From Candidatus Cloacimonadales bacterium (GTDB taxonomy: Bacteria; Cloacimonadota; Cloacimonadia; Cloacimonadales; JAFGVF01): 64,000 bases of DNA. Below are positions 15,879 through 34,830 of the stretch, in pieces; positions within the stretch are counted from its first letter, which is position 1, and every line of letters begins with the position of its first letter. Position numbers and translations under genes: made by a program. The notes under the pieces are model-generated. The model saw only the letters and a list, made by a program, of their open reading frames with translations. It did no database searches and had not been told where the DNA came from. The stretch spans positions 1,856,001-1,920,000 of the forward strand of contig OY762964.1 of NCBI GenBank assembly GCA_963667035.1, read 5' to 3'.

Positions 15879-16012
15879 AGTACCTCCTATAATTAGTAAC
15901 CCAATACTAATATGTACCAATAAATATGCAAGCACTTTTTATTTTACTAACTAATTAGTCTCTTATTCTTATTATTAGCATAAATCATATTTCACTATTA
16001 AATTATATATAG

Positions 16013-16039
16013 AAAAAGGTACTCATTTGAGTACCTTTT
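16013..16039 (-). terminator. Intrinsic terminator
   Basis: AAAAGGTACTCA-TT-TGAGTACCTTTT palindrome with T-tract. Confidence 0.75.
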
Positions 16040-16057
16040 AATGTTTAGCATAAACTT

Positions 16058-17119: not shown

Positions 17120-17646
17120 AATTCCTCCACAAATTATTTTATTTAAATAAAGTGGTTAATCTTTGACAATTGTCAATTAATATTTTACCTATTCTACAAT
17201 ACTGTGAGATTACTGAGTAAACAATTCAAACAATGCTAAACAAAGAAGTGATTGAAATTCCTGTTCACAATTACGACTATTATCAACTCAAGTAAAAAAT
17301 GGTATCGGTAATTCCACTTTTATTTCTCTATTATGACTTGAAAAAGCATACTGTTTAAAGGCATATTTCTTTATCTATATATATATCTGTTATCCTGCAT
17401 CAACGTTAATGGTTGTCCTACAATGAGTTTAATATACATCAAGCATAACTCGTGTTTTATCAAGGTATTATATTATAGTTGACAACAAATGTGATTCGCA
17501 AAAAACAGTGCTAACCTCTTTCCTAAGATAAAATTAGTTGAAGTAATTCATTCGGAGAATTTATCTTGACACAATGGTAAGAGTGAAAATCTTTAGACTT
17601 CTAAACAACAGTGCTTGATAAAGATATTAATAGAAAGGAGTTCAAA

Positions 17647-17940
17647 ATGACAAAAGCTGATTTGGTTAAGATCATCTCCAATGAGACAGGAATTATCAGA
17701 AAAGATGTCGCAATCGTAGTGGACAGTTTCTTACAATCTGTAAAGGATAGTATGCGTGATGGTAATCACATTGAAATCCGCGGATTCGGAACTTTCAAAC
17801 TAAGACATAGAAAACCAAGAATGGGTCGCAACCCTAAGACTAACGCTACCGTTAAAGTTCCTGAGAGAATGGTACCTACTTTCAAATTCTCACGTGACTT
17901 CAAAAACGAGATTACCAGTCTTGATTGCAAGGAGGACTAA
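17647..17940 (+). CDS. HU/IHF family DNA-binding protein
   Basis: MTKADLV...IEIRGFGTF...GRNPKT...PTFK; start behind AAGGAG. Confidence 0.93.
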   Translation: MTKADLVKIISNETGIIRKDVAIVVDSFLQSVKDSMRDGNHIEIRGFGTFKLRHRKPRMGRNPKTNATVKVPERMVPTFKFSRDFKNEITSLDCKED

Positions 17941-18029
17941 TGCCCTGTGGTAAGAAAAGAAAACGCCATAAAATAGCTACTCACAAAAGAAAAAAAAGAC
18001 TGCGTAAAAACAGACATAAAAAGAAATAA
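17940..18029 (+). CDS. 30S ribosomal protein bS22 (AURKAIP1/COX24 domain), 29 aa; missing from ORF track
   Basis: MPCGKKRKRHKIATHKRKKRLRKNRHKKK; GGAGG RBS; start overlaps HU stop (TAATG). Confidence 0.85.
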   Translation: MPCGKKRKRHKIATHKRKKRLRKNRHKKK

Positions 18030-18035
18030 ACTTTT

Positions 18036-18061
18036 ACGGTTCCATCTGGAGCCGTTTTTTT
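18036..18061 (+). terminator. Intrinsic terminator
   Basis: ACGGTTCCA-TC-TGGAGCCGT followed by T-run. Confidence 0.8.
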
Positions 18062-18097
18062 GTTTAAAGTGAGTTATTAATCATACCGGAGGTTCAT

Positions 18098-18508
18098 GTG
18101 CACGTTAGTTCAAGCTTTAACAAGTTGATATACAAACAGATTTGTGATTTATGGATTGAAACAGGAATTGCCAATCCGGCAAGACAAGATAGTTACGAGA
18201 TAATAAGCAAAACTCTTAGTCTAGGCGGCATGTTATATACCTTGTGGGACAACAAGCTCCTAATAGGCACAATTTGGCTCTCCAATGACGGAAGAAGAAT
18301 GCATGCTCATCATATGTGTATTCATCCGGATTATCAGGGTAAGGGCTTAGCAAAACTTCTACTCACCCCAGCTCTTGAGTATTCACAAAAATGTGGACTT
18401 CAACCAAAACTGGAAGTACACGAGTCTAATCCCGTAGCTCGTGAATTGTATAAGAAAAACGGTTTTATTGAACTTCCCGGATACATTGTTATGATAAAGA
18501 GGAAGTAA
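18098..18508 (+). CDS. GNAT family N-acetyltransferase
   Basis: IHPDYQGKGLAK (motif A); LEVHESNPVARELYKKNGF. Confidence 0.88.
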   Translation: MHVSSSFNKLIYKQICDLWIETGIANPARQDSYEIISKTLSLGGMLYTLWDNKLLIGTIWLSNDGRRMHAHHMCIHPDYQGKGLAKLLLTPALEYSQKCGLQPKLEVHESNPVARELYKKNGFIELPGYIVMIKRK

Positions 18509-18775
18509 ACTTAAGACTTTCCCAACTAACAAATCAAAGAAATTTCATTTCTTTAGTTAAACAAAGCTTATACAACAAGACCAATTTTTAGGCAGTTATA
18601 AACAGAACTTGGTATTAATGAAATGAAATTAATTTGATATCTATATCTCTGTTTACTTAAACTCTATTCTCTACTTCTCATGTTAATTTGCCTTACAATT
18701 TATTTTTATTTAATTTTCTACTTGACATATTTTATAATATTATTATTACTAATCAATATTATTGTAGGGGAAGTT

Positions 18776-19168
18776 ATGAAAAAATCTTATTATGCTATAT
18801 TGTCTTTATTTCTAGCTTTATTTATTAATCTTTCTAGTACTGAAATTTTAATTCGTGATAGTGTAGATATTTACACAATTAAATCTATACAAATTCGATT
18901 TGATACAGATAGATTCATGCCAATCGAAAGTATTGTAATTGATGAGATAAGTAAGCCGTTTGCCTTTAGTTACGGTAGAATACAGGAAGCTATTAATTGT
19001 TATTCCTATTCAAACAAATTAATGAAGATAGTTCTTGAAGATAAAATCAATCATGAGATTACTATAACCCTTTGTAAATCAGAAAGAGATTCAACAAAAA
19101 TTAGTTACATCTATTTTTTCAATAATATGGATGAATTGATTGAGATCGATTATGAAATCAAATATTAA
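18776..19168 (+). CDS. Hypothetical exported protein (first gene of island operon)
   Basis: MKKSYY signal-peptide start behind GGGGA; overlaps next gene. Confidence 0.6.
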   Translation: MKKSYYAILSLFLALFINLSSTEILIRDSVDIYTIKSIQIRFDTDRFMPIESIVIDEISKPFAFSYGRIQEAINCYSYSNKLMKIVLEDKINHEITITLCKSERDSTKISYIYFFNNMDELIEIDYEIKY

Positions 19169-22100
19169 ACACTATTTGATAATTTATCTCTTTGCTTTAG
19201 TATCGTCCCTAATCCCCTTTGAATTAGAAGCAGATGATTTCACGGTATTGTTTAACCATAATTCTATTACTGCCGGTACAAACTTCTTTGAGTTCAATCT
19301 TGGATTAAATATTAATCCAACATGTTATGCTTCACAAATAGAGATTAGTAATCCTTTTACAATATCTCAGAACAATTTTCCAATGTTTGTTTACCAGATT
19401 CTTATTGGAAGTAATTCAAAAGCAATTCTTCAGTCTGAAAATACCCCTTTAGATTCAACATATGTTACATGGTTTTACCACGAGGAGGAACAAAAGCTAA
19501 TTGTTAAGTTATTTGATAACACTTTTACAAGTTTTATATCAGTTAACTACATTCAGGATATACCTTGTTATGTATCAGAGTCTGAAGAGCTATATATAAA
19601 CATTATTGATAATGGAACTATTCTAAGACCTCAAAATTACGAAATTCCTATAGTGATATCACCATCATCATATCAAACTCTATTAATTGAGTCTTTCTAT
19701 TCAACAAATTATCGTGAAACTGAAGTGATTTATCTTACTTCAGGAGATGTAACTAATCTGTTTGCCATTAAGAGAGATGAATGGGGGAACTACATTGGGA
19801 AAAATGATAACTGTATTTGGAGTATTGAGCCACATATCGGAACTTTTATTTCATTTGAAGGAGGAGTTGAATTTGAAGGTTCATCCTTTGGATATGGGGA
19901 AATTTCCCTTGTTGACGATAATGACTTAACTCTATCTGATACCTGCCCTGTATTTATCGAAACAAACATACCATCACAACTCAATATTTTTGATTCATTT
20001 AATAACCAGATATTAGATACAACAAATCTATTATGCAGTGACTCACTTGCTGTGTATGTAGAAGTAACTGATACTTATGGTAATCAGATAACCGATGCAG
20101 ATATATCATGGAATATAGATCTAATCGGTGACTATCTCTCGTTCGAAAATGGCTATTCGAACGTATTTCATCCTGTGACAGAAACAACTTATACATTAAC
20201 AGTATCTGCCACTGCGAGCGAAACTACTATTGACAATAACCTTACAATAAGTACTTCAACAGGTATTCCTAATATACTTGCTCTTGAGAATGAAAACTTT
20301 AACTTAACCAATAATACCTATAATATTACGGTAGATGATACTTTTACTTTTGATTTTGTCATTAGAGATGACGATGGTAATCCTCATAACTATGAAGAAA
20401 TAACAGTTGAACCTCATTTCAGCTCTACAATTCCACCTATATTATCAGTAGTAGATAACACAGTTAGTTTAAGCATCGATGCAAATGCATCGGGTATAGG
20501 GACCGGTTATATCGAGATAGTAAAGACTTACCAAGGTATACAATATGAATTAAATACTCCTACAATTGTATTCGAAGAAGGTATACCTACTACGATAACA
20601 TTCTATGATACTTCAAGTAACCCAATCACAGAAGTTTCAGATTTATTGTGCAGTGACTCACTTGCTGTGTATGTAGAAGTAATTGATGCTTACGGTAATC
20701 AAATAAACAATGCAAATGTATCATGGAATATAGATTTAACCGGTGATTATCTCTCAATGGGCAATGGCTATTCGACGGTGTTCCATCCTGCGACAGAGAC
20801 AACATACACATTAACAGTATCTGCCACTGCGAGCGAAACTACTATTGATAGCACTCTTATCATTAATACAATAACCGGACTGCCAAATGCACTTGAACTC
20901 GAGAATGAAAACTTTAACTTAACCAATAATACCTATAATATTACGGTAGATGATACTTTTACTTTTGATTTTGTCATTAGAGATGACGATGGTAATCCTC
21001 ATAACTATGAAGAAATAACAGTTGAACCTCATTTCAGCTCTACAATTCCACCTATATTATCAGTAGTAGATAACACAGTTAGTTTAAGCATCGATGCAAA
21101 TGCATCGGGTATAGGGACCGGTTATATCGAGATAGTAAAGACTTACCAAGGTATACAATATGAATTAAATACTCCTACAATTGTATTCGAAGAAGGTATA
21201 CCTACTACGATAACATTCTATGATACTTCAAGTAACCCAATCACAGAAGTTTCAGATTTATTGTGCAGTGACTCACTTGCTGTGTATGTAGAAGTAATTG
21301 ATGCTTACGGTAATCAAATAAACAATGCAAATGTATCATGGAATATAGATTTAACCGGTGATTATCTCTCAATGGGCAATGGCTATTCGACGGTGTTCCA
21401 TCCTGCGACAGAGACAACATACACATTAACAGTATCTGCCACTGCGAGCGAAACTACTATTGACAATAACCTTACAATAAGTACTTCAACAGGTATTCCT
21501 AATATACTTGCTCTTGAGAATGAAAACTTTAACTTAACCAATAATACCTATAATATTACGGTAGATGATACTTTTACTTTTGATTTTGTCATTAGAGATG
21601 ACGATGGTAATCCTCATAACTATGAAGAAATAACAGTTGAACCTCATTTCAGCTCTACAATTCCACCTATATTATCAGTAGTAGATAACACAGTTAGTTT
21701 AAGCATCGATGCAAATGCATCGGGTATAGGGACCGGTTATATCGAGATAGTAAAGACTTACCAAGGTATACAATATGAATTAAATACTCCTACAATTGTA
21801 TTCGAAGAAGGTATACCTACTACGATAACATTCTATGATACTTCAAGTAACCCAATCACAGAAGTTTCAGATTTATTGTGCAGTGACTCACTTGCTGTGT
21901 ATGTAGAAGTAATTGATGCTTACGGTAATCAAATAAACAATGCAAATGTATCATGGAATATAGATTTAACCGGTGACTATCTCTCTATGGGTAATGGCTA
22001 TTCGAACGTATTTCATCCTGTGACAGAAACAACTTATACATTAACAGTATCTGCCACTGCGAGCGAAACTACTATTGATAGCACTCTTATCATTAATACA

Positions 22101-25100
22101 ATAACCGGACTGCCAAATGCACTTGAACTCGAGAATGAAAACTTTAACTTAACCAATAATACCTATAATATTACGGTAGATGATACTTTTACTTTTGATT
22201 TTGTCATTAGAGATGACGATGGTAATCCTCATAACTATGAAGAAATAACAGTTGAACCTCATTTCAGCTCTACAATTCCACCTATATTATCAGTAGTAGA
22301 TAACACAGTTAGTTTAAGCATCGATGCAAATGCATCGGGTATAGGGACCGGTTATATCGAGATAGTAAAGACTTACCAAGGTATACAATATGAATTAAAT
22401 ACTCCTACAATTGTATTCGAAGAAGGTATACCTACTACGATAACATTCTATGATACTTCAAGTAACCCAATCACAGAAGTTTCAGATTTATTGTGCAGTG
22501 ACTCACTTGCTGTGTATGTAGAAGTAATTGATGCTTACGGTAATCAAATAAACAATGCAAATGTATCATGGAATATAGATTTAACCGGTGATTATCTCTC
22601 AATGGGCAATGGCTATTCGACGGTGTTCCATCCTGCGACAGAGACAACATACACATTAACAGTATCTGCCACTGCGAGCGAAACTACTATTGACAATAAC
22701 CTTACAATAAGTACTTCAACAGGTATTCCTAATATACTTGCTCTTGAGAATGAAAACTTTAACTTAACCAATAATACCTATAATATTACGGTAGATGATA
22801 CTTTTACTTTTGATTTTGTCATTAGAGATGACGATGGTAATCCTCATAACTATGAAGAAATAACAGTTGAACCTCATTTCAGCTCTACAATTCCACCTAT
22901 ATTATCAGTAGTAGATAACACAGTTAGTTTAAGCATCGATGCAAATGCATCGGGTATAGGGACCGGTTATATCGAGATAGTAAAGACTTACCAAGGTATA
23001 CAATATGAATTAAATACTCCTACAATTGTATTCGAAGAAGGTATACCTACTACGATAACATTCTATGATACTTCAAGTAACCCAATCACAGAAGTTTCAG
23101 ATTTATTGTGCAGTGACTCACTTGCTGTGTATGTAGAAGTAATTGATGCTTACGGTAATCAAATAAACAATGCAAATGTATCATGGAATATAGATTTAAC
23201 CGGTGATTATCTCTCAATGGGCAATGGCTATTCGACGGTGCTCCATCCTGCGACAGAGACAACATACACATTAACAGTATCTGCCACTGCAAGCGAAACT
23301 ACTATTGATAGCACTCTTATCATTAATACAATAACCGGACTGCCAAATGCACTTGAACTCGAGAATGAAAACTTTAACTTAACCAATAATACCTATAATA
23401 TTACGGTAGATGATACTTTTACTTTTGATTTTGTCATTAGAGATGACGATGGTAATCCGCATAATTATGAAGAAATAACAGTTGAACCTCATTTCAGCTC
23501 TACAATTCCACCTATATTATCAGTAGTAGATAACACAGTTAGTTTAAGCATCGATGCAAATGCATCGGGTATAGGGACCGGTTATATCGAGATAGTAAAG
23601 ACTTACCAAGGTATACAATATGAATTAAATACTCCTACAATTGTGTTAGATGTTGGAACTCCAAGATTCCTATATATCAAGGATGCTCCTTTTCCAATAG
23701 AAGGTAATGATATTAGCTTGTCAGATGTAACTGTTGGCTCATCAGTAGATATGTATGCAATATGTGAAGACCAGCACTACAATAATATTGAGCTAGAACC
23801 TAATGCTTTAAACTGGATTATCTCCCCATTAGAACTAGAAAATAGTATAGAAGTTAATGGTATTTTCGCTACATTTCGTCCAACAACAGCTAGTTCAGAA
23901 GTTACAATAACCGTGAGTTATGTAGATTTTGAAATAAAACATTCAATAGGTCCTTTTAGTATATTTGATAGACCTAACCTTTCATACGTCGATTCAACTT
24001 TGACTCCATTAATTATTAGTCCCGGGGAGGAGATTTGCTTTTCTTTAAACATACGGAATCAAAATCGAGCATGTACAAGTATAGAGTTAAGTACTCAATC
24101 ATACCTTAGTCTTTTTGATTCTCAAACTGGTTCGGAATGCATAAGTCATCTTGAGCAAGAAGTTTCTATAAATGATTCTTCAATTAGTTTGTTAGAGTTT
24201 GAAAAATTAGAAATACCGAATGATTTTACTGCTGAGACATATCCAATCGAGTTACATCTGGATGGCACCTTTTCATGTTTAAATAGTGATGAATTAGGTG
24301 AATACTCTGAAACAATTATTATTGAAAATAATCAAGTCTGCATTTCTAATGTAGTTATAGAAACTGTATCTTCAGTAAATAGTGTTGTCTACCCTGGTGA
24401 TAAAGATACTGTTTTTGTCCAGTTTTCAAACTTTGGTACTCTTGATGTTTCAGTAACAGAGGTTCAGTTAACTTTTAATGGAACAGCAAATAATGATCAT
24501 AATTATGATACAGTTATTGAAAGTTTTTCTCTACCACCAAACTCGTCTAGAACAGAGGAATTCGAAGTTACAGTTAACAACAATGCATCGTTAGGTAATG
24601 TTGTATTGGATGCAAACTTTACAGCTATAAATCAGATTGGAAACCCATATCATGTATCCGATGCTCTATCTACAGATTCATGGGATATAGTAACACCACC
24701 TAATATAGAATATTGTCAATCATCATTGCATGTTAATGGTACTTCATTTGATGGAGAACTACATGTTACTCAAGGACAGAATACAGAATTTTCGTTTAAT
24801 CTACAGAACACTGGAAGTGTTGGAGTGAAACTAATTAGAGACTCAACATATATTGAATATATACATATTGATGGTACAGTTGTAAAAAGTTTAATGACTC
24901 AAGATAGCCTTTTAGTAAATCCTAATGACTCAAGTGCTATTGAATTTTGCTCTATAGAATCTTACTTTCCAAATTTAGGATTAGACACTTTACACTTTAC
25001 TTGTATGGGCATTGATAATAATGCATACAAGTATTCGACAAGTTTTTACATACCGGATCTTTTAACAGTAGTTGATTCATTTTCTCCAATAGTTGAGCAG

Positions 25101-27131
25101 AATAATATCGAGATTGTAAAAACATATCCTGTTAATCCCGAAATCCAATTGTCAAATATTGGAGGAGTTTTAGGAATTTTGTCTGAATCAAATACAAGTT
25201 TAACAATATCTGCTGTAAACTATGAAGAGGAATTAGGTAAACCAATATCAATAGGTATAGATAGTGAAGTAATGCTTATATTTGAGGAGTTTACATTTCC
25301 TGCTGATACTTCACCTCAGGTTGATTTTGTCCTTAATATTGAGGGTGTAGATTCTAACAATGCTTCATTTGCTCATCAGCTCCCAGGAACTTGTAATTTA
25401 AAAAATCCGGTTAGCTTTCAACTACTTTCCTACTCTCCTCATCAAGCAGTTTTAAATGATCAAGCAAGTTTTTCTGTTACAGTTAAAAACAATGGGGGTG
25501 TTTATTTTGACCCAACCGGACAAACCAAAATAAGTTTTATTAAAGATTCAATTAATTTGTTTACTTCTCTGGCTGAAATCGAGACAAGAGTATTATCAGG
25601 AGAAACATCTGAAATAACATTTTTCTCGGAAGAGATTGTTGCTGATATTGATCCAGGAATGGGAGTTTTTGAAGTAGAAATTATAGGCGTAGATTCACAC
25701 AATAATCCAGTTTATGAAACGGTTTCTTTACAAGTTGATATAGAGAATCGAGGATACCCACAAATTGAGTCTGTGTGGTTTATTGATGGAGGTCTAAATG
25801 AAACACCTAATGGTATTGTAGATTCTACTGATGCTTTAAAAGTTTGTTTTGATGATAAGCCGATAATTTCGAATGGCATTAGAGAAAGCTATTCGTTCTT
25901 CCAATTGATTGGTAGAAATGACAGTTTCGGAGAAATCAACACCTCTAAAATTGTAACTAGTGAGGAAATGTATTATACAGGTATAGATAAAGATAGTACT
26001 TTATTTGTACAACTTGCTCAAGATTGCAAGATTAGTCTTCCATATCAAGATAACCATTTTGATGCAGAGATAACACCTTCTTACTTAATCATCAAACCTG
26101 ATATTGAAAGAGATTTATTATGTGATGTAAACAAAGGGGATGCAGGTTTTGAATGTAATAGAACATTACTATCAGACCAACTTAATGAGATTTCTCAACA
26201 CATACCTGGTATTAACATCTGCTCCCATGAAGTAAGAATTCAAGATAATATACCACCATTGTTGTTAAATCCCTATCCAATCGGCAATGCTATGAATGAT
26301 AATTATTACTCTAAATACAGTGATGTATCTATCATGGCATCCGGAAGAAACTATGTTGATTCAAATGTTTTAAGACAAGAACTTATTCAATATTTTACGG
26401 ATTTAGAAGTTGATTCTATGATAAGCAATTATGATACTCTGTATGTAAAACTACAAAGTCTGACAGATGATGATATCAACTTTATTGCGAATAAATTCAA
26501 AAATCACATACCTTCATCAATTGACTTGAATCTTGATAATCTAATTGTGAATCCTTTTGCTCAAATGTATTCTGGATTAAAAGAAGAGTTTATCTCAGTA
26601 GAGTTAACTAACGAGTTTTCAAATTACAATAACTTGACAACAAACTATAATGAAATTGAAGATAAAATATATAATAATTTAACAGTAAAGAGTCAAAATA
26701 CCTTTGATGGCGAGATAACAGCAAAGCTGCAAGTATCAGATCACTATAATCAAACCTATAGTGATACAACCTTCCAATTCATTGTTAGTAAACCAGGAAG
26801 AGATTATATCACTTATGGAAATCAAGAGTATCTTCTTAGGACTGCTCCAAACCCTATTAATTTAAATAGGGATAAAGAGATTTATTTAGAATATATACTA
26901 CCAAACATAGCAGATCACATTGCAATTATAATAGTAGATTCAGGTGGTAACATCGTAAAAAAAATATCTTACACTAATGCGATGGACACAAATACAGGTA
27001 AACATCTTAAGCAAAATTTCTGGAATCTACGTAATGGTAGAGGTGATAGAATATCCAAGGGAATTTACTTAATCTTACTAGAAGTAGATGGTGATGTTAA
27101 AGCCGGATGGCATATTGTCGGAGATAAATAA
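19152..27131 (+). CDS. Giant repetitive Ig-like surface protein with FlgD/T9SS-like CTD
   Basis: Signal peptide; acidic, T/N/S-rich beta sequence; about six 205-aa repeats; C-terminal TAPNP...IVDSGGNIVK...WNLRNGRGDRISKGIYL. Confidence 0.8.
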   Translation: MKSNIKHYLIIYLFALVSSLIPFELEADDFTVLFNHNSITAGTNFFEFNLGLNINPTCYASQIEISNPFTISQNNFPMFVYQILIGSNSKAILQSENTPLDSTYVTWFYHEEEQKLIVKLFDNTFTSFISVNYIQDIPCYVSESEELYINIIDNGTILRPQNYEIPIVISPSSYQTLLIESFYSTNYRETEVIYLTSGDVTNLFAIKRDEWGNYIGKNDNCIWSIEPHIGTFISFEGGVEFEGSSFGYGEISLVDDNDLTLSDTCPVFIETNIPSQLNIFDSFNNQILDTTNLLCSDSLAVYVEVTDTYGNQITDADISWNIDLIGDYLSFENGYSNVFHPVTETTYTLTVSATASETTIDNNLTISTSTGIPNILALENENFNLTNNTYNITVDDTFTFDFVIRDDDGNPHNYEEITVEPHFSSTIPPILSVVDNTVSLSIDANASGIGTGYIEIVKTYQGIQYELNTPTIVFEEGIPTTITFYDTSSNPITEVSDLLCSDSLAVYVEVIDAYGNQINNANVSWNIDLTGDYLSMGNGYSTVFHPATETTYTLTVSATASETTIDSTLIINTITGLPNALELENENFNLTNNTYNITVDDTFTFDFVIRDDDGNPHNYEEITVEPHFSSTIPPILSVVDNTVSLSIDANASGIGTGYIEIVKTYQGIQYELNTPTIVFEEGIPTTITFYDTSSNPITEVSDLLCSDSLAVYVEVIDAYGNQINNANVSWNIDLTGDYLSMGNGYSTVFHPATETTYTLTVSATASETTIDNNLTISTSTGIPNILALENENFNLTNNTYNITVDDTFTFDFVIRDDDGNPHNYEEITVEPHFSSTIPPILSVVDNTVSLSIDANASGIGTGYIEIVKTYQGIQYELNTPTIVFEEGIPTTITFYDTSSNPITEVSDLLCSDSLAVYVEVIDAYGNQINNANVSWNIDLTGDYLSMGNGYSNVFHPVTETTYTLTVSATASETTIDSTLIINTITGLPNALELENENFNLTNNTYNITVDDTFTFDFVIRDDDGNPHNYEEITVEPHFSSTIPPILSVVDNTVSLSIDANASGIGTGYIEIVKTYQGIQYELNTPTIVFEEGIPTTITFYDTSSNPITEVSDLLCSDSLAVYVEVIDAYGNQINNANVSWNIDLTGDYLSMGNGYSTVFHPATETTYTLTVSATASETTIDNNLTISTSTGIPNILALENENFNLTNNTYNITVDDTFTFDFVIRDDDGNPHNYEEITVEPHFSSTIPPILSVVDNTVSLSIDANASGIGTGYIEIVKTYQGIQYELNTPTIVFEEGIPTTITFYDTSSNPITEVSDLLCSDSLAVYVEVIDAYGNQINNANVSWNIDLTGDYLSMGNGYSTVLHPATETTYTLTVSATASETTIDSTLIINTITGLPNALELENENFNLTNNTYNITVDDTFTFDFVIRDDDGNPHNYEEITVEPHFSSTIPPILSVVDNTVSLSIDANASGIGTGYIEIVKTYQGIQYELNTPTIVLDVGTPRFLYIKDAPFPIEGNDISLSDVTVGSSVDMYAICEDQHYNNIELEPNALNWIISPLELENSIEVNGIFATFRPTTASSEVTITVSYVDFEIKHSIGPFSIFDRPNLSYVDSTLTPLIISPGEEICFSLNIRNQNRACTSIELSTQSYLSLFDSQTGSECISHLEQEVSINDSSISLLEFEKLEIPNDFTAETYPIELHLDGTFSCLNSDELGEYSETIIIENNQVCISNVVIETVSSVNSVVYPGDKDTVFVQFSNFGTLDVSVTEVQLTFNGTANNDHNYDTVIESFSLPPNSSRTEEFEVTVNNNASLGNVVLDANFTAINQIGNPYHVSDALSTDSWDIVTPPNIEYCQSSLHVNGTSFDGELHVTQGQNTEFSFNLQNTGSVGVKLIRDSTYIEYIHIDGTVVKSLMTQDSLLVNPNDSSAIEFCSIESYFPNLGLDTLHFTCMGIDNNAYKYSTSFYIPDLLTVVDSFSPIVEQNNIEIVKTYPVNPEIQLSNIGGVLGILSESNTSLTISAVNYEEELGKPISIGIDSEVMLIFEEFTFPADTSPQVDFVLNIEGVDSNNASFAHQLPGTCNLKNPVSFQLLSYSPHQAVLNDQASFSVTVKNNGGVYFDPTGQTKISFIKDSINLFTSLAEIETRVLSGETSEITFFSEEIVADIDPGMGVFEVEIIGVDSHNNPVYETVSLQVDIENRGYPQIESVWFIDGGLNETPNGIVDSTDALKVCFDDKPIISNGIRESYSFFQLIGRNDSFGEINTSKIVTSEEMYYTGIDKDSTLFVQLAQDCKISLPYQDNHFDAEITPSYLIIKPDIERDLLCDVNKGDAGFECNRTLLSDQLNEISQHIPGINICSHEVRIQDNIPPLLLNPYPIGNAMNDNYYSKYSDVSIMASGRNYVDSNVLRQELIQYFTDLEVDSMISNYDTLYVKLQSLTDDDINFIANKFKNHIPSSIDLNLDNLIVNPFAQMYSGLKEEFISVELTNEFSNYNNLTTNYNEIEDKIYNNLTVKSQNTFDGEITAKLQVSDHYNQTYSDTTFQFIVSKPGRDYITYGNQEYLLRTAPNPINLNRDKEIYLEYILPNIADHIAIIIVDSGGNIVKKISYTNAMDTNTGKHLKQNFWNLRNGRGDRISKGIYLILLEVDGDVKAGWHIVGDK
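20030..23644 (+). repeat. Intragenic tandem repeat, 615-bp period, ~5.9 near-identical copies
   Basis: Anchor TGCAGTGACTCAC at 20034, 20649, 21264, 21879, 22494 and 23109. Confidence 0.97.
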
Positions 27132-28114
27132 TGAAGAAATATATCTTAATTGCTACTAACTTACTGCTTGCAGTATTCATATACTGTGGTTCATATTATG
27201 GTGGAGGAGTTAATGCTTGGTTTTCTAATCCAGGAACTGCTAGAGAAATTGGTATGGGAATGACTGGAGTGTCTAATGCTAAAGGAGCTTCTTCTTTTCT
27301 ATGGAATCCTGCGAGATTAGATTCTCTAGATTTGGCAATAACGATAAGCGATTTCGCGAATTCGGAAGACTTATTCTGGTCACAACAGAAGAGTAATGAG
27401 ACTTATTCAGGGCATTTATCTACAGTATATAGAGATTGGGGATTTAATCTTAGATATAAGCAAATCAATCATATCGGATATACCAATTATGATCCATTAA
27501 CAAGTACTATTATTGTTGATAGATGGGAAAATAGTTATGATTGGTCAGCTAATATAAACTACTCTCACAGTTTCAATAGTTCGATAGCTGTAGGTTGCAA
27601 TTTAAGATCATCGTATAATGAAATTTTTGAGAGTAGCTATACCATTGGAAGTGATGTTGGCGGATTAGTACGTTTCCCATATTCCTTTTCAGCTAAAGAT
27701 ATTTATAGATTCCAATACGGAATTGTTCTATCATTAGACTCCGAAATAGGTAACGAAAATCCTGTGTATCAATACAGTCTTGCAAGCGGATTATCTTATA
27801 TAATAAGTGATAATTGGAGCGTTTCAACTGACTTTAAAACAGGTAATTACCAATCGAACTCTATAAGTCTTGGAAGTGAGTATTCTTTGTGGGATCAATT
27901 ATATCTTAGGATAGGTTTAAGTAATTATTTTAGTAGTAAATTTCCGAATGAAGTTCTAAGAACTCCAACAAAACCTTTTGAAGGTTCCACTTATGGAATT
28001 GGTTTCAAAATAAAGAAATTTATGCTTGATGTTTCTCATGTAGTACAAAGCTCAAATTATTATTATTATTATACACAATCAACGACATTTTTATCATTTA
28101 GTTATAGTCGTTAA
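27131..28114 (+). CDS. PorV/PorQ(UPF0164)-like outer-membrane beta-barrel
   Basis: Plug motif GTAREIGMG...SFLWNPA; DVGGL, LGSEY...LYLRIG and GIGFK; aromatic C-terminal strand. Confidence 0.75.
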   Translation: MKKYILIATNLLLAVFIYCGSYYGGGVNAWFSNPGTAREIGMGMTGVSNAKGASSFLWNPARLDSLDLAITISDFANSEDLFWSQQKSNETYSGHLSTVYRDWGFNLRYKQINHIGYTNYDPLTSTIIVDRWENSYDWSANINYSHSFNSSIAVGCNLRSSYNEIFESSYTIGSDVGGLVRFPYSFSAKDIYRFQYGIVLSLDSEIGNENPVYQYSLASGLSYIISDNWSVSTDFKTGNYQSNSISLGSEYSLWDQLYLRIGLSNYFSSKFPNEVLRTPTKPFEGSTYGIGFKIKKFMLDVSHVVQSSNYYYYYTQSTTFLSFSYSR

Positions 28115-30268
28115 ATGGAGGGAAAATATATAATGGTTACATTAGCAACTAATTCCAAACATTCTTTTTGGATAAAAATCAGGATTATCTTTGCTTTCTT
28201 TATTTCACTTGGTGCTATTATGGTTGCCTTGTGTTTCACCATAAATGGTCTAAAAAAGCATCAAGAGAATATAACAACTATAATGATGAGTTCAGATTAT
28301 CTCTCTGCTGCAGTCGATTATTTGCAGAAAACATCTGAGTATTATAATGGTGAAACTAATGAAGAATTTTTGAGCAAAATTGATAAAGAACTTATTAACT
28401 CTAACCAGAACACACGAAGTTTTTTTAGAGCTTTGATCGAAAGAGATTCAACTATCGTAAGTTCATTAGTAGATAAATTTGAGTTAAACTCAAAGATTTA
28501 TCATATAGATGAGCAGTTTTATCAATTTTTTGATCATATTATGTACTTGGTTTATAATGAAGATCCATTAATTTATGAACTTAAATTTCATAGGTTACAT
28601 AAAGAATTGATAATAGTTGCAGAAGATAAGACATCGTTGGAAGTAGAGAAAGATAATAAGAACTACCATTCTATAATTAAAATGCTAAATAGAAGAAGAA
28701 AACGTTTGTTTCTAAACATACTATTGGAGATTTATCATTACTCTTCAATAGATATCGACAGCATAATTCTAGATGAAATCTCGAATATGAATGACGTCAA
28801 AGAAGATATACCATTATATTCTATTTACAGCGGACTTATACGACACGACAAGAACAAGAACAATGAATTCACGCAGATGTTGTTTGAATCCACAAGAAAA
28901 GACCCGACATTAACTAATCAATTAGTCAATTTAAATCTTAGGATTTATAATCGAATAGATAGTTTAACAACAAAGTTTAAAATTGATGAGAGTGAGGATG
29001 AGTATTATAAAAAATATATCGATAGTGCTAGAGATTATTTATATTACTTAGGAATTACATATAATGATCGTATCGCAAATATTGATGAAACAATTTGCAA
29101 TGTTCAGTGTAGGAATTCCTATCAGTATAAGCTAACTGATTGGCTAACATTTTCAATATATATTACTATGGGGATAGTTATTTGTATCTTTTGTATACTT
29201 TCATTAAGATATCATAAGCAGTATAACTTAGATGATGAGTTAACGAAAACAATTTGTACTGATAACCAAGAGTTAAGCGAATTAATGCTGAGTAAATTAG
29301 ATCCTCTGAGTTTATCCAAAAAAAATAATGGGATTAAAATGTATTTACTAAATGTGTTAAAACTTAAAAATGATAACATATACATTCCGAAAGTGCTACA
29401 TGAAGAATATTTAAATGAGTATTATCTGCAAGAAGAGTATGAGAAAGAGAAAATTAGAAATACTTTTGTGTGGCTTATTAGATTGGGTATTATTGGTACA
29501 CTTTTAGGTATATACTTGGCATTTAGTGAAATGCAAAATGGAATGTCTGCAGAAACTGAAGGTGTACATTTTCTTGATACTTTAGTGAAAGCTGTTGGAG
29601 GAAATGCTGTAGCTGTTATTACTAGTTTAGTAGCTCATTTCGTTACATTTTTTTTTGAAGCATCAGTTTGCTTTAAACTGTTTGAATTATCTTCAACAGC
29701 TATGATTAGAGAAATTTACAAACAGTTAATGGATAAAAGTACATTAGAAGATCCATTTAGTGATGCGAGAGAAGATCTCAATAGAATTGTTATAGAATTT
29801 AAATTTTGGTTTGAGATGATTAAGAAATCGAAACTTGAAGAAAAGATTGTTGAGACGACAAATACAATAACAATCTGCAATAATTGTCTAAAATTATTTT
29901 ATTCTAAACTTAGAATAACGATTGAAGAGTCTGATTATATGCACTATTATATAAATAGCCTGATTCAAGTATTAGAAAGTGTTCGAAATGATTTAAGAAA
30001 CATTGATATGATAAGCATTAGCGAAATTTTGGATACATCACTAGAACTAAATGATGCTTTTGAATCAGAACTATTTCTTGTAGAAACTATCAAAGAGAGT
30101 AAAAATATAATCATAGACTCCATTTCATCACTTAGTAAATTTAATCAAACATTGAAAGATTTTGACAGTTCACAAATTGATAAGATTAGTTTGGTCATGA
30201 CTGACATTAGTAAAGCTATCATCAATTTGAAAATTTCGCTTGGAGTAAAAAATGATAACAAAGATTAA
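28115..30268 (+). CDS. MotA/TolQ/ExbB (ZorA-like) proton-channel protein with extra periplasmic domain and long helical tail
   Basis: Four hydrophobic segments. LGIIGTLLGI and GGNAVAVITSL match the MotA/TolQ/ExbB TM signatures. Confidence 0.65.
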   Translation: MEGKYIMVTLATNSKHSFWIKIRIIFAFFISLGAIMVALCFTINGLKKHQENITTIMMSSDYLSAAVDYLQKTSEYYNGETNEEFLSKIDKELINSNQNTRSFFRALIERDSTIVSSLVDKFELNSKIYHIDEQFYQFFDHIMYLVYNEDPLIYELKFHRLHKELIIVAEDKTSLEVEKDNKNYHSIIKMLNRRRKRLFLNILLEIYHYSSIDIDSIILDEISNMNDVKEDIPLYSIYSGLIRHDKNKNNEFTQMLFESTRKDPTLTNQLVNLNLRIYNRIDSLTTKFKIDESEDEYYKKYIDSARDYLYYLGITYNDRIANIDETICNVQCRNSYQYKLTDWLTFSIYITMGIVICIFCILSLRYHKQYNLDDELTKTICTDNQELSELMLSKLDPLSLSKKNNGIKMYLLNVLKLKNDNIYIPKVLHEEYLNEYYLQEEYEKEKIRNTFVWLIRLGIIGTLLGIYLAFSEMQNGMSAETEGVHFLDTLVKAVGGNAVAVITSLVAHFVTFFFEASVCFKLFELSSTAMIREIYKQLMDKSTLEDPFSDAREDLNRIVIEFKFWFEMIKKSKLEEKIVETTNTITICNNCLKLFYSKLRITIEESDYMHYYINSLIQVLESVRNDLRNIDMISISEILDTSLELNDAFESELFLVETIKESKNIIIDSISSLSKFNQTLKDFDSSQIDKISLVMTDISKAIINLKISLGVKNDNKD

Positions 30269-30860
30269 AGTCAGTAAATATTGGGAAAGTATACTATTAA
30301 TCTCTTTAGATACATTTATGTTACTAGCTGTTATGGGTATTACATTGGGCGTAATATTTATTGTGATGAACTCAGAAATACCAAATAAAAAGCCTGATTA
30401 TGCTACTGACTGGGGTAAAATGGCAGAAGAAAGCATTGATGAAATAAGAACAATGAGTTATCTGAAGAATTTGGTGACTAAAGAAGAAATTCCAGGGGAA
30501 GAGAGACTGATTATCAAATATCATAAACTAAATAGCTTATTCAGCTCAAATACTTATGATAGTTTATGGGGAAAGTATTTTCCGCAAAACATTTACGAAA
30601 CAAAAATAGAGTGCTTTGTTGATAATAAAAAAAAATATGACAAAAAATATGGCTCGGGTATCCGAAAGGTCAGTATAAAAGTAGACTTTAAAACGAATAA
30701 TTATGATCAAGAAGTATGCACTATGATTGAGTACAATGGCTATGAAGAAAATAGTGTCTACAAACTGATCCCAGATGCAAATGATGTTTACATATATACT
30801 GGAAATCGCATAAAGAATAATATGCTTGAACTGCTATCTGAACTAAATAATGCAAAATAG
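30252..30860 (+). CDS. Single-TM MotB/ExbD-like partner protein
   Basis: N-terminal TM containing Asp (ISLDTFMLLAVMG); overlaps the MotA-like gene. Confidence 0.5.
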   Translation: MITKIKVSKYWESILLISLDTFMLLAVMGITLGVIFIVMNSEIPNKKPDYATDWGKMAEESIDEIRTMSYLKNLVTKEEIPGEERLIIKYHKLNSLFSSNTYDSLWGKYFPQNIYETKIECFVDNKKKYDKKYGSGIRKVSIKVDFKTNNYDQEVCTMIEYNGYEENSVYKLIPDANDVYIYTGNRIKNNMLELLSELNNAK

Positions 30861-31794
30861 TAAGTCACATATGTTACTTCAAAATCGTTTTTTTTTAGTA
30901 TTAATGCTAATAGTTGTCTTTGTGCATTCTTATTCTCTTGAAATTCGAGAGGATAATGATATGATAAAATATACTTTTGTATATAAAGTTGATGTAAAGT
31001 TTAATGAGTTTAACCAAAAGTTGGAAAAACCTCTACCCTCAAGATCACAAGATAATATAACGCTTGATGTTTTTATCCGAATCAATATCGTTGAGCTTAG
31101 GGGGAACTCTTTTGCTGAAACAAGCCAAATAGATTCGGTAACGTTAAAAGAACTATGTAAAGAAATGTTTATAACATTTAGTAAGGGGAATTCTAAAGGT
31201 TTACATACTCGAATGGAGATAGGTAAAGGTTCTGACAATAAGCAAGTAGGAACTTGGCTTCTGAATAATGATGTAATAAAAGCAAAATTACTGAAAGATC
31301 TCCTCAAGATTTTTTCTCTTCAGAATGACAGTTTATATACAAAACTGTATTCTTTTGATAAACCAAGGATAATAGAAAATAAAAACGAACAAAGCTTTTT
31401 AATCAATAAACCCCCAGAAATCAAAATACACTCTTCAGTCAATACAATAAGTGAACTGCACGAAATAGAATTAGATACTTTTATCTTCCAGAAGAGTACT
31501 ATTGATAAAAATGTTCCGATAGACATAGGTACATGCTACTCTTTCCACAAATCAGATACTATTAAAAATGAAGCTATAGCATTGAAAGATACCGTGAATT
31601 ATGATGCTATAGTGTTTGATGCTAAACCAGACTCGTTATCAAAACTTATATTTTTAAAAAGGAGCAAGGTTAAAGAGTTGCTAAAGGGCTATGTAGGTAA
31701 AAAAGATAGGAAAGTAGAAAAGGAAAATAGAAAGCATGCTATTATTTTATCAATTATCTCAGCTGTTGCTGTAATCCTGTCAGCAATTCGATAG
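30850..31794 (+). CDS. Hypothetical exported protein with C-terminal TM anchor
   Basis: N-terminal hydrophobic segment; C-terminal KHAIILSIISAVAVILSAIR. Confidence 0.6.
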   Translation: MQNSKSHMLLQNRFFLVLMLIVVFVHSYSLEIREDNDMIKYTFVYKVDVKFNEFNQKLEKPLPSRSQDNITLDVFIRINIVELRGNSFAETSQIDSVTLKELCKEMFITFSKGNSKGLHTRMEIGKGSDNKQVGTWLLNNDVIKAKLLKDLLKIFSLQNDSLYTKLYSFDKPRIIENKNEQSFLINKPPEIKIHSSVNTISELHEIELDTFIFQKSTIDKNVPIDIGTCYSFHKSDTIKNEAIALKDTVNYDAIVFDAKPDSLSKLIFLKRSKVKELLKGYVGKKDRKVEKENRKHAIILSIISAVAVILSAIR

Positions 31795-31824
31795 TAACAC
31801 ATCTCATAAGATAGAGATGTTACT
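31793..31824. terminator. Hairpin between convergent operons
   Basis: AGTAACACATCTC...GAGATGTTACT. Confidence 0.55.
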
Positions 31825-31878
31825 CACTAGAGAAGTACTCTTATAACTCTTATAAGCTTTTTAATAATTGAGCAAGAG

Positions 31879-33069
31879 CTAAAAGAATTCAACTGTAACA
31901 GTTTTAACAAACTTCGTACGAAGGATTTTAACCAGATTCTTAATAAGATTACGTCTGATATCAAGTTCTTGAGGTAGATTAGGATCTTGATGAGCTTCAT
32001 TAATTTTTGTGCCTGCCACTATTCTTATAACATCGCTTTCTAAAAGTAGATTAGCCATTTCATAGGCCGAGTTCTTTCCAAAATGCTCATTGTTATCATG
32101 CTCTTTTAGAATAGAATATACTTGTGAGAGCGTTATTGTTCCTTCCGTAATTAAGTCAAATCCCTCCATAGAAGCTTTAGGAGGTACTTTTGAGCCGGAC
32201 CAGAACTTGTTTAAATCCATTTCCACAGGTCGGTTTAGCTCTCTGGAAATGATGTTAGCACTAGTACCACCTGCAATAATCTTTCTTCCGATAAAAGTAT
32301 CGGCAATTTCTGCGTACCTACTGTCGCTTTCCTGATTAAATGGAGGTCCCGTAATCAAAAGTGTCTTTCTCGGTTCTCTATAATAAAATACAGAGCAGGT
32401 AATATCATCTTTGGCTTGATTGTTATCTCTTCGATGAGAGGCTTTCACTATCTCTCTTGCCAATCCTGCAGCAGAAATAAGTGGATTTTCAATACACAGA
32501 CTGGAGACAAACTGATGCAAATCAGCATTTTCCCATCCGAGTGGAGACACAGTCCTTCCAAGTCCACTTTGAGTTACTCCATCAGAGAAAAAGACAATTC
32601 GATCTAAATATTGAAGCTTAAATGAGGAGTAGTAAACCTTGTTTCTACGATTGTTCTTTAGACTGATTTCAATTGTCTCCTTCTCGGGAGTAATTATGCG
32701 ATTATTTCTAATTAGGAGATATGAGGGGTTATCATATTCAATAATTCTAACAAACCCGTCCGGCTCAAGATCAAAGATAGAAAAAGTAGAGTACCCTATT
32801 TTTCTTACAGAGCATACGGGAAGAGTAGACAGTATAACTTCAGCAGCTTTATGAATATCCATTCTATTCTCAATGAACTTTAAAGCCATAGAGGTAGTCA
32901 ATGTTGCCAATACATTTGCTTTAATACCACTACCTAAGCCATCAGCCAATACTGCCACAAGCCTGTTATCTATTGTTGATTTAGCAGAGACAAACTTATC
33001 ACCGGGAACCTTCTGACCTTCTTTGCTAATCTGAAAGAAACCGGTCTCAACAAAGTATTCTTTAATCAT
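31879..33069 (-). CDS. SpoIIE-like PP2C serine phosphatase (HfsC-type)
   Basis: VLADGLGSGIKA, YSTFS, FSDGVTQSG, DDITC, GGTSANI and TEG.ITL. Start at ATG 33069. Confidence 0.88.
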   Translation of the reverse strand: MIKEYFVETGFFQISKEGQKVPGDKFVSAKSTIDNRLVAVLADGLGSGIKANVLATLTTSMALKFIENRMDIHKAAEVILSTLPVCSVRKIGYSTFSIFDLEPDGFVRIIEYDNPSYLLIRNNRIITPEKETIEISLKNNRRNKVYYSSFKLQYLDRIVFFSDGVTQSGLGRTVSPLGWENADLHQFVSSLCIENPLISAAGLAREIVKASHRRDNNQAKDDITCSVFYYREPRKTLLITGPPFNQESDSRYAEIADTFIGRKIIAGGTSANIISRELNRPVEMDLNKFWSGSKVPPKASMEGFDLITEGTITLSQVYSILKEHDNNEHFGKNSAYEMANLLLESDVIRIVAGTKINEAHQDPNLPQELDIRRNLIKNLVKILRTKFVKTVTVEFF

Positions 33070-34765
33070 TTTTATCGTGCTCAAATGAATCAATTACAGA
33101 GTTTAGCAGAATCTCGGTCTCGGAAGCACTCTCTCCCAAAAGGAAAGCAATCTGTTGAACAGTTGTAAGATTAGTCATGATAACCTTCTTAGCTTTCTCG
33201 ATAATCTGTTCTCTATGCATGGAAGGATGAGTAATATCCTGGACTATACCACCAATAATCCTGTGCCCCTCTATCGGGAAGAGGATTAACTTAAGTATCT
33301 TCTTGTTGAAACTAAACTCGGTCTCCAGAAGTTCATTGGGGGAATTAAGAAATGCTTCAAAATAGGAGGAAAAGCTAATAATCCGCTTGAGGTAAGAATC
33401 CGAGAGACCGGGTTTAGCATCATATACGTAAGTTAAATCACCACCTATGATTTCGGCAAAGCGACGATTACATTCAATAACTTTAAGCTTATCATCGACA
33501 ATAATAACTCCTGAAGGCATAGCCTTCAACAGAGCATTTGCCTTATTCATAGCTACAGAACGCATATATGTAACACACATATAAGTCTGAGCATAGCCAT
33601 TCAAAACAGCTGCTGCAAATTCACGACATGTAGAATACCCACATCCTCCACAGTTAAGTTCATCTTTATGTGAACACTTACCTACCTGCCTAAGAACATT
33701 GTTCAACTCAGTTACACTATAATTATTCTCGACAACATCGTTAGTTCTATAATTGTTCCTGATAATCACTTCTCCAATGCTGTCTATCTCACTCACCGAA
33801 TCAATCACATTCTTTTGAACAGCGAGCTTTCTAAGTGAAACTGGAAGCTCTGATGGCATTGAAGGTCCATTAATACAACCACCGGGACAGGCCATAAGTT
33901 CTAGGAAAATCTTTGAGTTTGCATAATCATTTACCGAGTTAAGGATTCCATCTAGCTCCTTGATGTCGGTGAAACTTACAAAATCCGTATCATCATTAGT
34001 ATAAAACTCTCTAACAGTACTAATCATTCCTCCATCTAGAGGATATGCACCGGATTTTCCTGCCTTGAAAGGCTCAAATGAGAGTTCCTCCATTGTATCT
34101 ACAAGTTTAATACCTTTCTTAACAAACATTTCATTTAGTTCTTTAAAAGTAATTGAGATGTCTACATATTCCGGCATAACATCAGATTCATTCTTCTTTG
34201 CTACACAAGGATTAATGAATATTACTGCAGTATCTGCACCATAATGTTCTTTTAGGAATTTTGCATGTGATTGAGCAGGAGATAGCAGTTTGGACAGATA
34301 TTGCGAGAACTCCGGTTTATACTTTGAAATAAACTCATTTACAACAGGACATGCAGATGATATAAGAAGCTTACTATCATTGTTACTAAGTTCCATTGCA
34401 ACTTGTTTTGATACAATTGTAGCTCCTAAAGCTGTCTCGGATACCATACTGAAACCTAACTTCTTTAAAGCGAAAATGATAGTTGAATCGGAACAATCAT
34501 ATACACTTTTATAAGAAGGAGCAAGAGATGCTATTACTCTCTTCCCTGAGTTTAACAACAGTTCGGCTCCTGTAATATCATTTCTCACTCTCTTGGCTTC
34601 AACAGGACATATCTGGGTACATTTACCGCATAATATACACCTTTCAGAATCTACAACTGCACTTCCGTTTTCAACCTTTATAGCTTTAACAGGACAGTGT
34701 CTGATACATTTAAAGCAATCCCTACAACTTGTCTTGTGGGTATAGATAGGAGAAATTCTATTCAT
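33062..34765 (-). CDS. Sensory [FeFe]-hydrogenase-like protein (HydS/HfsB type) with Fe-S and PAS domains
   Basis: Two 4Fe-4S motifs; variant H-cluster motifs ISSACP, NPCVAKKNE and LMACPGGC; CGGCGYSTC; PAS region. Confidence 0.88.
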   Translation of the reverse strand: MNRISPIYTHKTSCRDCFKCIRHCPVKAIKVENGSAVVDSERCILCGKCTQICPVEAKRVRNDITGAELLLNSGKRVIASLAPSYKSVYDCSDSTIIFALKKLGFSMVSETALGATIVSKQVAMELSNNDSKLLISSACPVVNEFISKYKPEFSQYLSKLLSPAQSHAKFLKEHYGADTAVIFINPCVAKKNESDVMPEYVDISITFKELNEMFVKKGIKLVDTMEELSFEPFKAGKSGAYPLDGGMISTVREFYTNDDTDFVSFTDIKELDGILNSVNDYANSKIFLELMACPGGCINGPSMPSELPVSLRKLAVQKNVIDSVSEIDSIGEVIIRNNYRTNDVVENNYSVTELNNVLRQVGKCSHKDELNCGGCGYSTCREFAAAVLNGYAQTYMCVTYMRSVAMNKANALLKAMPSGVIIVDDKLKVIECNRRFAEIIGGDLTYVYDAKPGLSDSYLKRIISFSSYFEAFLNSPNELLETEFSFNKKILKLILFPIEGHRIIGGIVQDITHPSMHREQIIEKAKKVIMTNLTTVQQIAFLLGESASETEILLNSVIDSFEHDKND

Positions 34766-34784
34766 TGTATTGTCCTTTTCAGAG

Positions 34785-34818
34785 GATAGCAGGGAGAGAT
34801 ATACTCTCCCTTACTATC
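34785..34818 (-). other. Intra-operon stem-loop between adh and hydS-like gene
   Basis: GATAG..GGGAGAG-ATATA-CTCTCCC..CTATC; no U-tract on the transcribed strand. Confidence 0.5.
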
Positions 34819-34830
34819 TATGTGTATGTA

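Follow-up and report, generated by a model that had tools for sequence, protein, structure and literature searches.

A rare gene cassette that joins a giant surface protein and a PorV-like barrel to a remote MotA/ExbB/TolQ-superfamily protein in a Candidatus Cloacimonadales genome

Why are a giant surface protein, a predicted outer-membrane barrel and a protein that resembles the stator of an ion-driven motor encoded side by side, in overlapping or abutting genes, on one small AT-rich island? The question is raised by a 64,000-nucleotide stretch of DNA (here called the window) from a Candidatus Cloacimonadales bacterium, which comprises positions 1,856,001 to 1,920,000 of the forward strand of contig OY762964.1 in the assembly GCA_963667035.1, and in which the island carries six genes that are designated here A to F in their order on the plus strand. 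[quoted passage not shown] The answer preferred here, which is tentative and held with a little less than even confidence, is that cargo, carrier and motor make up on this island one portable unit that belongs to the world of type 9 secretion.

Recurrence and identity of the cassette proteins

That the genes form a set is suggested by their recurrence. Loci were gathered from the genomes of relatives, from a species-genome collection and from metagenomes, which gave 12 records and, once duplicates had been removed (L014 is the same as L012, and the D protein of L018 is identical to that of L017), 10 distinct loci from several lineages. The order B-C-D-E-F is kept in all 10 as far as each contig extends. 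Gene C lies directly before D in 10 of 10 and E follows D in each of the nine loci with enough DNA, while an F-type protein comes next in 8 of 8 and a large B-type open reading frame (ORF) precedes C, likewise in 8 of 8. The recurrence elsewhere that the original prediction had named as its own test is thereby confirmed. The named hosts of the cassette are one Melioribacteraceae and one Neomarinimicrobiota metagenome-assembled genome. Its distribution is sparse, with copies in 2 of 232 genomes of the window's own phylum (none of three from the same genus and none of eight from the same family) and in 1 of 401 genomes sampled from the phylum of another host, G232.

The protein D belongs, as a remote member, to the MotA/ExbB/TolQ superfamily, in which ZorA is nearest to it. 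A word-indexed search with it returned D itself only, and an exhaustive HMMER search of 1.84 billion representatives yielded 32 relatives with E values from 1.5e-10 to 5.5e-4. The Pfam model MotA_ExbB (PF01618) matches 13 of the 33 members of this family at E up to 0.01, with a best value of 2.4e-9, and in a six-frame search of the genome it was flagged over its cut-off at D with 23.0 bits. Hydropathy places four hydrophobic segments at residues 24-42, 344-362, 451-469 and 494-523. The first two are separated by an insert of about 300 residues, and the protein ends in a helical tail of about 190; a helical cytoplasmic tail of this kind is kept across the whole D family. The last two helices hold the glycine-rich motif and the polar ion-path threonine that are typical of the MotA/TolQ/ExbB superfamily, and the columns that are invariant in the family are W453, R456, G458, I459, G461, T462, G465 and A507, T503 being nearly invariant.

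Comparison of the full-length D profile with the PDB was swamped by coiled-coil proteins, and an alignment of the core only, built from 10 loci, was used instead. The profile of this core matches ZorA (8qyh) with an E value of 5.7e-5, TolQ (8vlw) with 1.4e-3, a ZorA of Shewanella with 6.6e-3 and ExbB with 2.3, and in its alignment to the PDB chain T462 falls on Thr147 of ZorA and the polar Asn498 on Ser184. In the accessible part of PMC11946911, from which the roles of the aligned ZorA residues are taken, Thr147 is described as an ion-filter residue. The profile–profile comparison made with hhalign between the D core and the genome's own five ExbB/MotA-type proteins gave a probability of 85% and an E value of 6.5e-6.

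The AlphaFold2 (AF2) model of D is poor overall, with a predicted local distance difference test (pLDDT) score of 57.9, and fair in the core, where the score lies between 66 and 84. When the core was submitted to Foldseek, the matches listed above rank 50 were all chains of ExbB, TolQ, ZorA or MotA, with ExbB and TolQ at the top and a best match at E 7e-3 with a TM value of 0.60 by target. VIA returned ZorA, ExbB and TolQ at Z 10.1-10.7, the values for ExbB being Z 10.3 (root-mean-square deviation, rmsd, 4.5 with 215 aligned) and those for TolQ Z 10.1 (rmsd 4.7 with 209 aligned). By AF2, Foldseek and VIA the core of D has an ExbB/TolQ/MotA-type fold. The MotA/ExbB-type assignment that had been proposed for D from the letters of the window is thus borne out for both core and fold by the family-wide Pfam matches, the PDB profile, hhalign and Foldseek.

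The giant protein B has a signal peptide, matches to the Ig-like Pfam families Big_1 and Glyco_hydro2_C5, and six tandem repeats that follow one another at a spacing of 615 bp (five times) and share 81-100% protein identity. Its last 470-820 residues are homologous to the proteins at the same position in the host genome G013 (E 9e-50) and in locus L010 (E 4e-45), the G013 copy being one that is without a signal peptide and matches the C-terminal 820 residues of B only. The end of B, on sequence grounds, is a putative, divergent T9SS-type CTD, spanning its last 100 residues. The alignment of the B tails has conserved motifs, FlgD_ig is over its cut-off in three of eight homologous tails, and at E up to 0.1 the CTD region of PorU is matched by 6 of 6 tails and TIGR04183 by 5 of 6 (best 2.2e-7). 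A masked stretch, read as X, lies in the B-type gene of locus L011 (6611-8209), so that the tail there could not be assessed.

The candidate carrier of this tail is C, which its profile matches identify as a predicted member of the PorV/PorQ family of barrels. The best match of the C family profile in the PDB is PorV of Flavobacterium johnsoniae (6h3i, E 3.6e-8), followed by the FadL-family channels TbuX, CymD and TodX with E values of 5e-4 to 0.075. A complex of the two partners was predicted from C with an alignment of eight rows and the last 100 residues of B with an alignment of six rows. It scored 0.80 against 0.01 for the best control, at least 79% of the contacts agreed between runs, and the pLDDT of the partner was at least 84; 116 of 157 solved complexes attain that mark, as do 2 of 215 mismatched pairs. 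The pairing of cargo and barrel, which the original prediction had put forward, gains support from this result, and C is predicted to bind the CTD of B.

The partner of D is expected in E, the gene that follows it. The AF2 model of E consists of a single helix at residues 9-41 with a pLDDT of 92-98 and a remainder below 60; Asp20, at the start of the helix, is invariant in 13 of 13 sequences, and Gly29 is an invariant residue too. E-type proteins are few, with seven among 5.8 billion clusters, of which the sole named one is called hypothetical. No match to E was obtained from Pfam, NCBIfam or PADLOC, and hence none to a MotB, ExbD or OmpA family; the PDB gave nothing below E 0.5, and the ESM Atlas gave no usable match for either E or F. 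What suits E to the part of the B subunit of such a motor is only its position in the operon and the helix with the Asp, and by all the tests that were run it is not a homologue of MotB, ExbD or TolR. Of the earlier description of E as MotB-like, the single helix with an invariant Asp therefore stands, while the family relationship does not.

Protein F, which comes next, starts with a signal-like segment and is hydrophobic at its C-terminal end (residues 295-313), as judged by hydropathy, and a protein of this architecture occupies the same place in all eight loci with DNA past E. The F proteins of different loci have no detectable sequence similarity to one another, and neither Pfam nor NCBIfam gave a TonB or TolA family match for F. 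The protein may connect the inner membrane with the periplasm.

The island, its borders and its host

The coordinates of the island and of its features are collected in Table 1. The description of the operon as six overlapping or abutting genes on the same strand holds when the junctions are read directly in the sequence. A and B overlap, B and C have one base in common (TAATG), C and D abut (TAA ATG), and the D/E and E/F junctions are overlaps of 17 and 11 nt. The AT-richness noted at the outset is likewise confirmed for the whole 13.4 kb of the island, the low G+C content of which is equalled by 0.3% of 13.4-kb windows in the 3.1-Mb genome. The hairpin that had been said to close the operon fares less well: an imperfect stem is present after the last stop codon, the 91-nt spacer that holds it folding at -17.8 kcal/mol, but this energy has a z value of -1.23 against shuffles, a U-run is lacking, and a terminator scan has no entry at about 31793-31824, so that the hairpin is not a canonical terminator.

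Table 1. Positions in the window of the island, its six genes and their notable parts.
Feature	Position	Strand	Basis or remark
Island with the cassette	18512..31879	none	missing between matching flanks in G001; G+C 31.6% vs 35.6% in the genome
A, 130 aa, N-terminal signal-like segment	18776..19168 (alternative start 18680)	+	ORF, hydropathy
B, giant surface protein, 2663 aa (TTG start at 19140); ATG at 19152	19140/19152..27131	+	ORF, Ig-like matches
Six tandem 615-bp (205-aa) repeats within B	19959..23651	+	repeat spacing, identities
Putative CTD of B, last 100 aa	26829..27128	+	divergent T9SS type-A / FlgD_ig-like sorting domain
C, 327 aa, predicted PorV/PorQ-family (FadL-superfamily) outer-membrane barrel	27131..28114	+	NCBIfam, PDB profile, complex prediction
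D, 717 aa, remote MotA/ExbB/TolQ-superfamily protein	28115..30268	+	Pfam, hydropathy, AF2, Foldseek, VIA
Motor core of D, aa 338-547	29126..29755	+	alignments, PDB profile, hhalign
E, 202 aa, single-pass membrane protein	30252..30860	+	alignments, AF2
F, 314 aa, hydrophobic at both ends	30850..31794	+	hydropathy
Imperfect hairpin after the last stop	31793..31824 (about)	+	11-pair stem, without U-run

The cassette was probably acquired horizontally. A DNA search of five relatives showed that G001, from the same genus, has matches to 15001-18511 and 31880-34900 of the window and none between them. About 300 kb separates these flanks in G001 (contig G001:C4), where they point in opposite directions; as they match without the intervening DNA and are both separated and inverted, the island sits at a break in synteny. 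Terminal repeats of at least 11 nt were looked for at the borders of the island, and none were found. Within the genome itself no paralogues of A to F were detected by BLASTP or by purpose-built hidden Markov models (C matched other PorV-family genes only), and the profile of D alignment A1 gave weak matches, at E 1.4e-6 and worse.

The genes around the conserved core differ from locus to locus. A, which has no Pfam, NCBIfam or PADLOC match, is accessory rather than core, a small signal-peptide protein being present at its place in the window and in L010 only among the five loci in which upstream DNA is visible. The cassette is followed by a PLD-like gene in G013 (L009 6454-8109, minus strand), by a gene for a 1074-aa WD40 protein in L017 (13335-16559), and in L019 (10496-15216) by genes for a WD40 protein and a 1254-aa PD40-M23 peptidase-OmpA protein. 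Immediately to the left of the island, on the minus strand of the window (13905-17119), a DUF6588 protein is the neighbour of a 676-aa protein that has a Por_Secre_tail CTD.

Parts of the machinery of type 9 secretion are found in the hosts. SprA is over its cut-off in the window's own genome and in four of the five other hosts, that is in five of six. The window's genome also encodes PorU (615.5 bits); its PorV/PorQ-family genes that pass the cut-off number at least five, and its PorU-CTD-like tails about 45. The CTD of B is not among these tails, which fits a private carrier. PorU-CTD-like tails are also found elsewhere in the window, at about 53540-53779 on the plus strand and at 58244-58477 on the minus strand. 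The GldL and GldM models (TIGR03513 and TIGR03517) have no match in the window's genome, D and E included; GldM was found in none of the six hosts, and its model does match 15 of 61 genomes of the phylum of G232.

Separate, ordinary ExbBD-type sets are present in the genome as well. One of its gene sets (G000:C1:243422-252952) begins with a 1029-aa TonB-receptor-like gene, after which come one ExbB-like and two ExbD-like genes and genes for proteins of 217 and 1018 aa, and directly after it stands a PorV-family gene (185 bits), which makes this a second arrangement of a motor beside a PorV-family gene. A pair of MotA-like (245 aa) and MotB-like (218 aa) genes lies at G000:C1:2799986-2801372.

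Possible workings and rival explanations

In the model tentatively proposed here, the giant repeat-rich protein B would be exported by Sec, its divergent T9SS-type CTD would be bound by the barrel C of the same cassette, and the protein would cross the outer membrane through the SprA translocon of the host. D and E would form an ion-driven inner-membrane motor of the 5:2 class, with a D pentamer around two E helices and Asp20 of E facing Thr462 of D. The work of this motor would be relayed over the periplasm to the complex of C and B, for which the periplasmic part of E, the variable periplasmic insert of D and the doubly anchored F are candidate routes. The likeliest job would be to pull the carrier–cargo pair off the translocon and so to deploy the adhesin, as the GldLM chain does in Flavobacterium. 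The analogy on which the idea of a private cargo, carrier and motor draws is the energised extraction in F. johnsoniae, in which, according to the accessible part of PMC10994853, the carrier binds the CTD at the translocon and energy from the GldLM chain extracts the carrier–cargo pair. We infer the 5:2 arrangement of D and E, the way in which work passes from motor to barrel, the recourse to SprA and the step that is energised, and the roles of F, of A and of the insert and tail of D are likewise conjectural.

Several of the results weigh against this model. At the level of single proteins, D itself scores 21.7 bits with Pfam MotA_ExbB against a cut-off of 22.9, its core has no Foldseek match at E 1e-3 or better, and in VIA the matches to ZorA, ExbB and TolQ are tied with generic or designed helical bundles and with CorA. 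C matches the PorV/PorQ family of NCBIfam (PorV_fam) with an E value of 4.3e-17 and 62.7 bits, which is under the cut-off of 90, and the CTD of the window scores 15.2 bits with FlgD_ig (cut-off 27) and 16 bits with TIGR04183 (cut-off 23). The comparison of E with the genome's ExbD-type proteins gave an hhalign probability of 0.2%, and the part of E outside the membrane folds poorly in AF2 and is without a recognised fold. PorV–CTD complexes have already been solved (8gl6 and other PorV entries; PMC10994853, as far as accessible), so that the passing score of the C–CTD pair may reflect likeness rather than binding. At the level of the system, the complex prediction covered C and the CTD, the link between motor and barrel being conjectured, and the host G235 has no match to SprA. 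GldL was not found, in a search run without a positive control. The cassette is much too scarce to serve these phyla as their general T9SS motor, and the cytoplasmic coiled-coil tail of D is without a role in the model.

It has to be noted that the same gene set can be read in other ways, and that no test chooses among export, movement and sensing. A device for surface movement or tension is unlikely but conceivable: B would be exported in the normal way by the host T9SS, and D and E would move, rotate or pull the C-anchored adhesin, or report tension through the tail of D. The precedent is that the GldLM chain of Flavobacterium that extracts carrier–cargo pairs also propels carrier-anchored adhesins (PMC10994853, accessible part), and it would suit such a device that B is long, repeat-rich and filament-like and that the helical cytoplasmic tail, present throughout the D family, is of a kind fit for signalling or docking. 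The Pfam and NCBIfam searches, however, gave no GldJ- or GldK-like track or ring protein in the cassette, and the evidence, read from the genes alone, does not separate movement from energised export.

Sensing or defence is the essence of a Zorya-like explanation, which is improbable, and in which B and the barrel would act as a sensor of, or decoy for, attack on the envelope by phage or otherwise, while a ZorA-like motor would signal via its tail to effectors encoded elsewhere. ZorA is indeed the best solved sequence relative of the D core, and the sole other match of the D core profile in the 401 sampled genomes, at E 2.6e-9, is a true type I Zorya operon (L024, at G291:C7, 2986-10343, minus strand). 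D is tailed as ZorA is, by the description in the accessible part of PMC11946911, the cassette is rare, patchy and AT-rich as defence islands are, and a PLD-like gene follows its G013 copy. Against this stand the results of PADLOC, in which the Zorya operon of G291, as a control, scored 181 bits for ZorA, 213 for ZorB, 188 for ZorC and 992 for ZorD, whereas A and C to F of the window (B was not submitted) gave no match to the ZorA core, ZorB, ZorC, ZorD or ZorE; of six other D proteins two matched nothing and four gave weak, tail-level coiled-coil matches only. Moreover, the tail of D has about 190 residues, to be compared with a ZorA tail that projects about 70 nm (PMC11946911, accessible part), E lacks a peptidoglycan-binding domain, and beside the cassette neither a nuclease nor a helicase gene is conserved, its downstream genes varying by locus.

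Uptake or envelope maintenance of the Ton or Tol kind, which can be considered very unlikely, would make C a FadL-type channel, D and E an ExbBD/TolQR-like motor, F the counterpart of TonB or TolA, and B a mere neighbouring cargo. The genes tonB and tolA stand after motor genes, and F is membrane-anchored and encoded after the motor genes of the cassette; in addition, the C profile extends to the channels TbuX, CymD and TodX, and the top Foldseek matches of D are ExbB and TolQ. PorV is nevertheless a far better match for C than these channels, the CTD is predicted to bind C, and in 8 of 8 loci C comes after a B that has a conserved CTD. F, moreover, matches neither the TonB nor the TolA family, and both of its ends are anchored. 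That the cargo–barrel pair and the D-E-F set are independent neighbours that merely travel together on the island is highly improbable. Direct evidence of contact between the two halves is lacking, which would agree with such a view, but the adjacency of C and D is maintained in all 10 distinct loci over distant lineages in spite of B bodies and F sequences that have diverged beyond recognition, and the genes are translationally coupled.

The cargo–carrier–motor unit remains the preferred, if tentative, account. The search results agree with the statement of the original prediction that no TonB, TolA, flagellar or ZorC/D/E gene is present, as none was matched by Pfam, NCBIfam or PADLOC, and with its view that the set corresponds to no system already described, as far as PADLOC and the literature go. 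Its picture of a self-contained module, on the other hand, has become doubtful, since the T9SS-type tail of B and the presence of SprA in five of six hosts imply that the translocon of the host is probably needed.

Relation to known systems

To our knowledge the jobs of 5:2 ion-driven motors are a handful, namely flagellar rotation, the Ton and Tol systems, gliding together with type 9 secretion, and Zorya defence. What the cassette would add is a very remote clade of 5:2-type motors whose genes are always accompanied by those for a PorV-like barrel and for a giant surface protein with a CTD. It is possible, though doubtful at present, that D and E represent a new clade of 5:2 ion-driven motors dedicated to one PorV-like carrier and one giant adhesin, and with them a minimal, transferable, envelope-spanning machine with a new periplasmic link made of the E domain, the D insert and F. 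Such a clade could show how members of the FCB group that are SprA-positive and GldLM-negative energise their type 9 carriers. If the parts do cooperate, no smaller unit that couples membrane energy to one outer-membrane cargo would be known; the cassette would also offer a natural setting in which to test how force is transferred over the periplasm, and a clue to how type 9-like export gets its power beyond the classic Bacteroidia. The cassette shows, besides, that ZorA-like motors exist outside defence operons. Full-text searches of the literature found no description of this gene set, and in the accessible part of a survey of MotAB relatives (PMC12505986) ZorAB is excluded from the phylogeny and operons of this kind are unmentioned; on the T9SS, PMC8542988 offers no more than a reference.

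Several known machines offer points of comparison, at different distances from the cassette. In the gliding of Myxococcus, the Agl-Glt machinery links a TolQR-type motor via the periplasm with barrels in the outer membrane and with an adhesin on the surface. The parallel with the cassette is conceptual only, as components and lineage differ, and Glt homologues were not looked for. The ExbB-ExbD-TonB and TolQ-TolR-TolA systems are nearer in structure, in that they supply the top structural matches of the D core, have an inner-membrane motor that serves an outer-membrane barrel, and include a third membrane-anchored periplasmic protein after the motor, the position of which is held by F in the cassette. 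They differ in that E is not an ExbD or TolR homologue, that F is anchored otherwise and without a TonB or TolA family match, and that the barrel of the cassette is PorV-like by prediction and not a TonB-dependent receptor; the genome, besides, keeps its ExbBD-type sets separately.

Of the solved motors, ZorA-ZorB of Zorya (PDB 8qyd, 8qyh and 8vvn), a 5:2 motor whose cytoplasmic tail is long, is the closest sequence relative of the D core. The two have in common the ion-filter threonine, a cytoplasmic helical tail, and a partner, E in the case of the cassette, with an Asp of the essential type in a single helix. In contrast to ZorA, which reaches 181 bits, D is unseen by the ZorA core models of PADLOC, and it has an additional N-terminal membrane segment, a periplasmic insert and a tail of its own length, about 190 residues. 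E is without the peptidoglycan-binding domain, ZorC, ZorD and ZorE are absent, and the neighbours of the motor genes are a predicted barrel and a giant surface protein.

The T9SS, made up of CTD cargo, a carrier that is PorV or of the PorP/SprF type, the SprA translocon, the GldLM/PorLM motor and the Hub, is the system with which the cassette is compared most directly in the proposed model. The two differ in that the motor of the cassette is not GldL/GldM, the models of which are silent in the hosts, D belonging to the MotA/ExbB/TolQ superfamily and E carrying its Asp as MotB, ExbD and ZorB do; in that GldK/N ring genes are missing from the cassette; and in that one rare, mobile-looking island encodes both carrier and motor together with a single cargo. 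What they share is a cargo with a putative C-terminal Ig-like sorting domain, a barrel that is predicted to be of the PorV family and to bind this cargo, and an ion-driven inner-membrane motor as a likely part of the functional set, in hosts that carry SprA and PorU.

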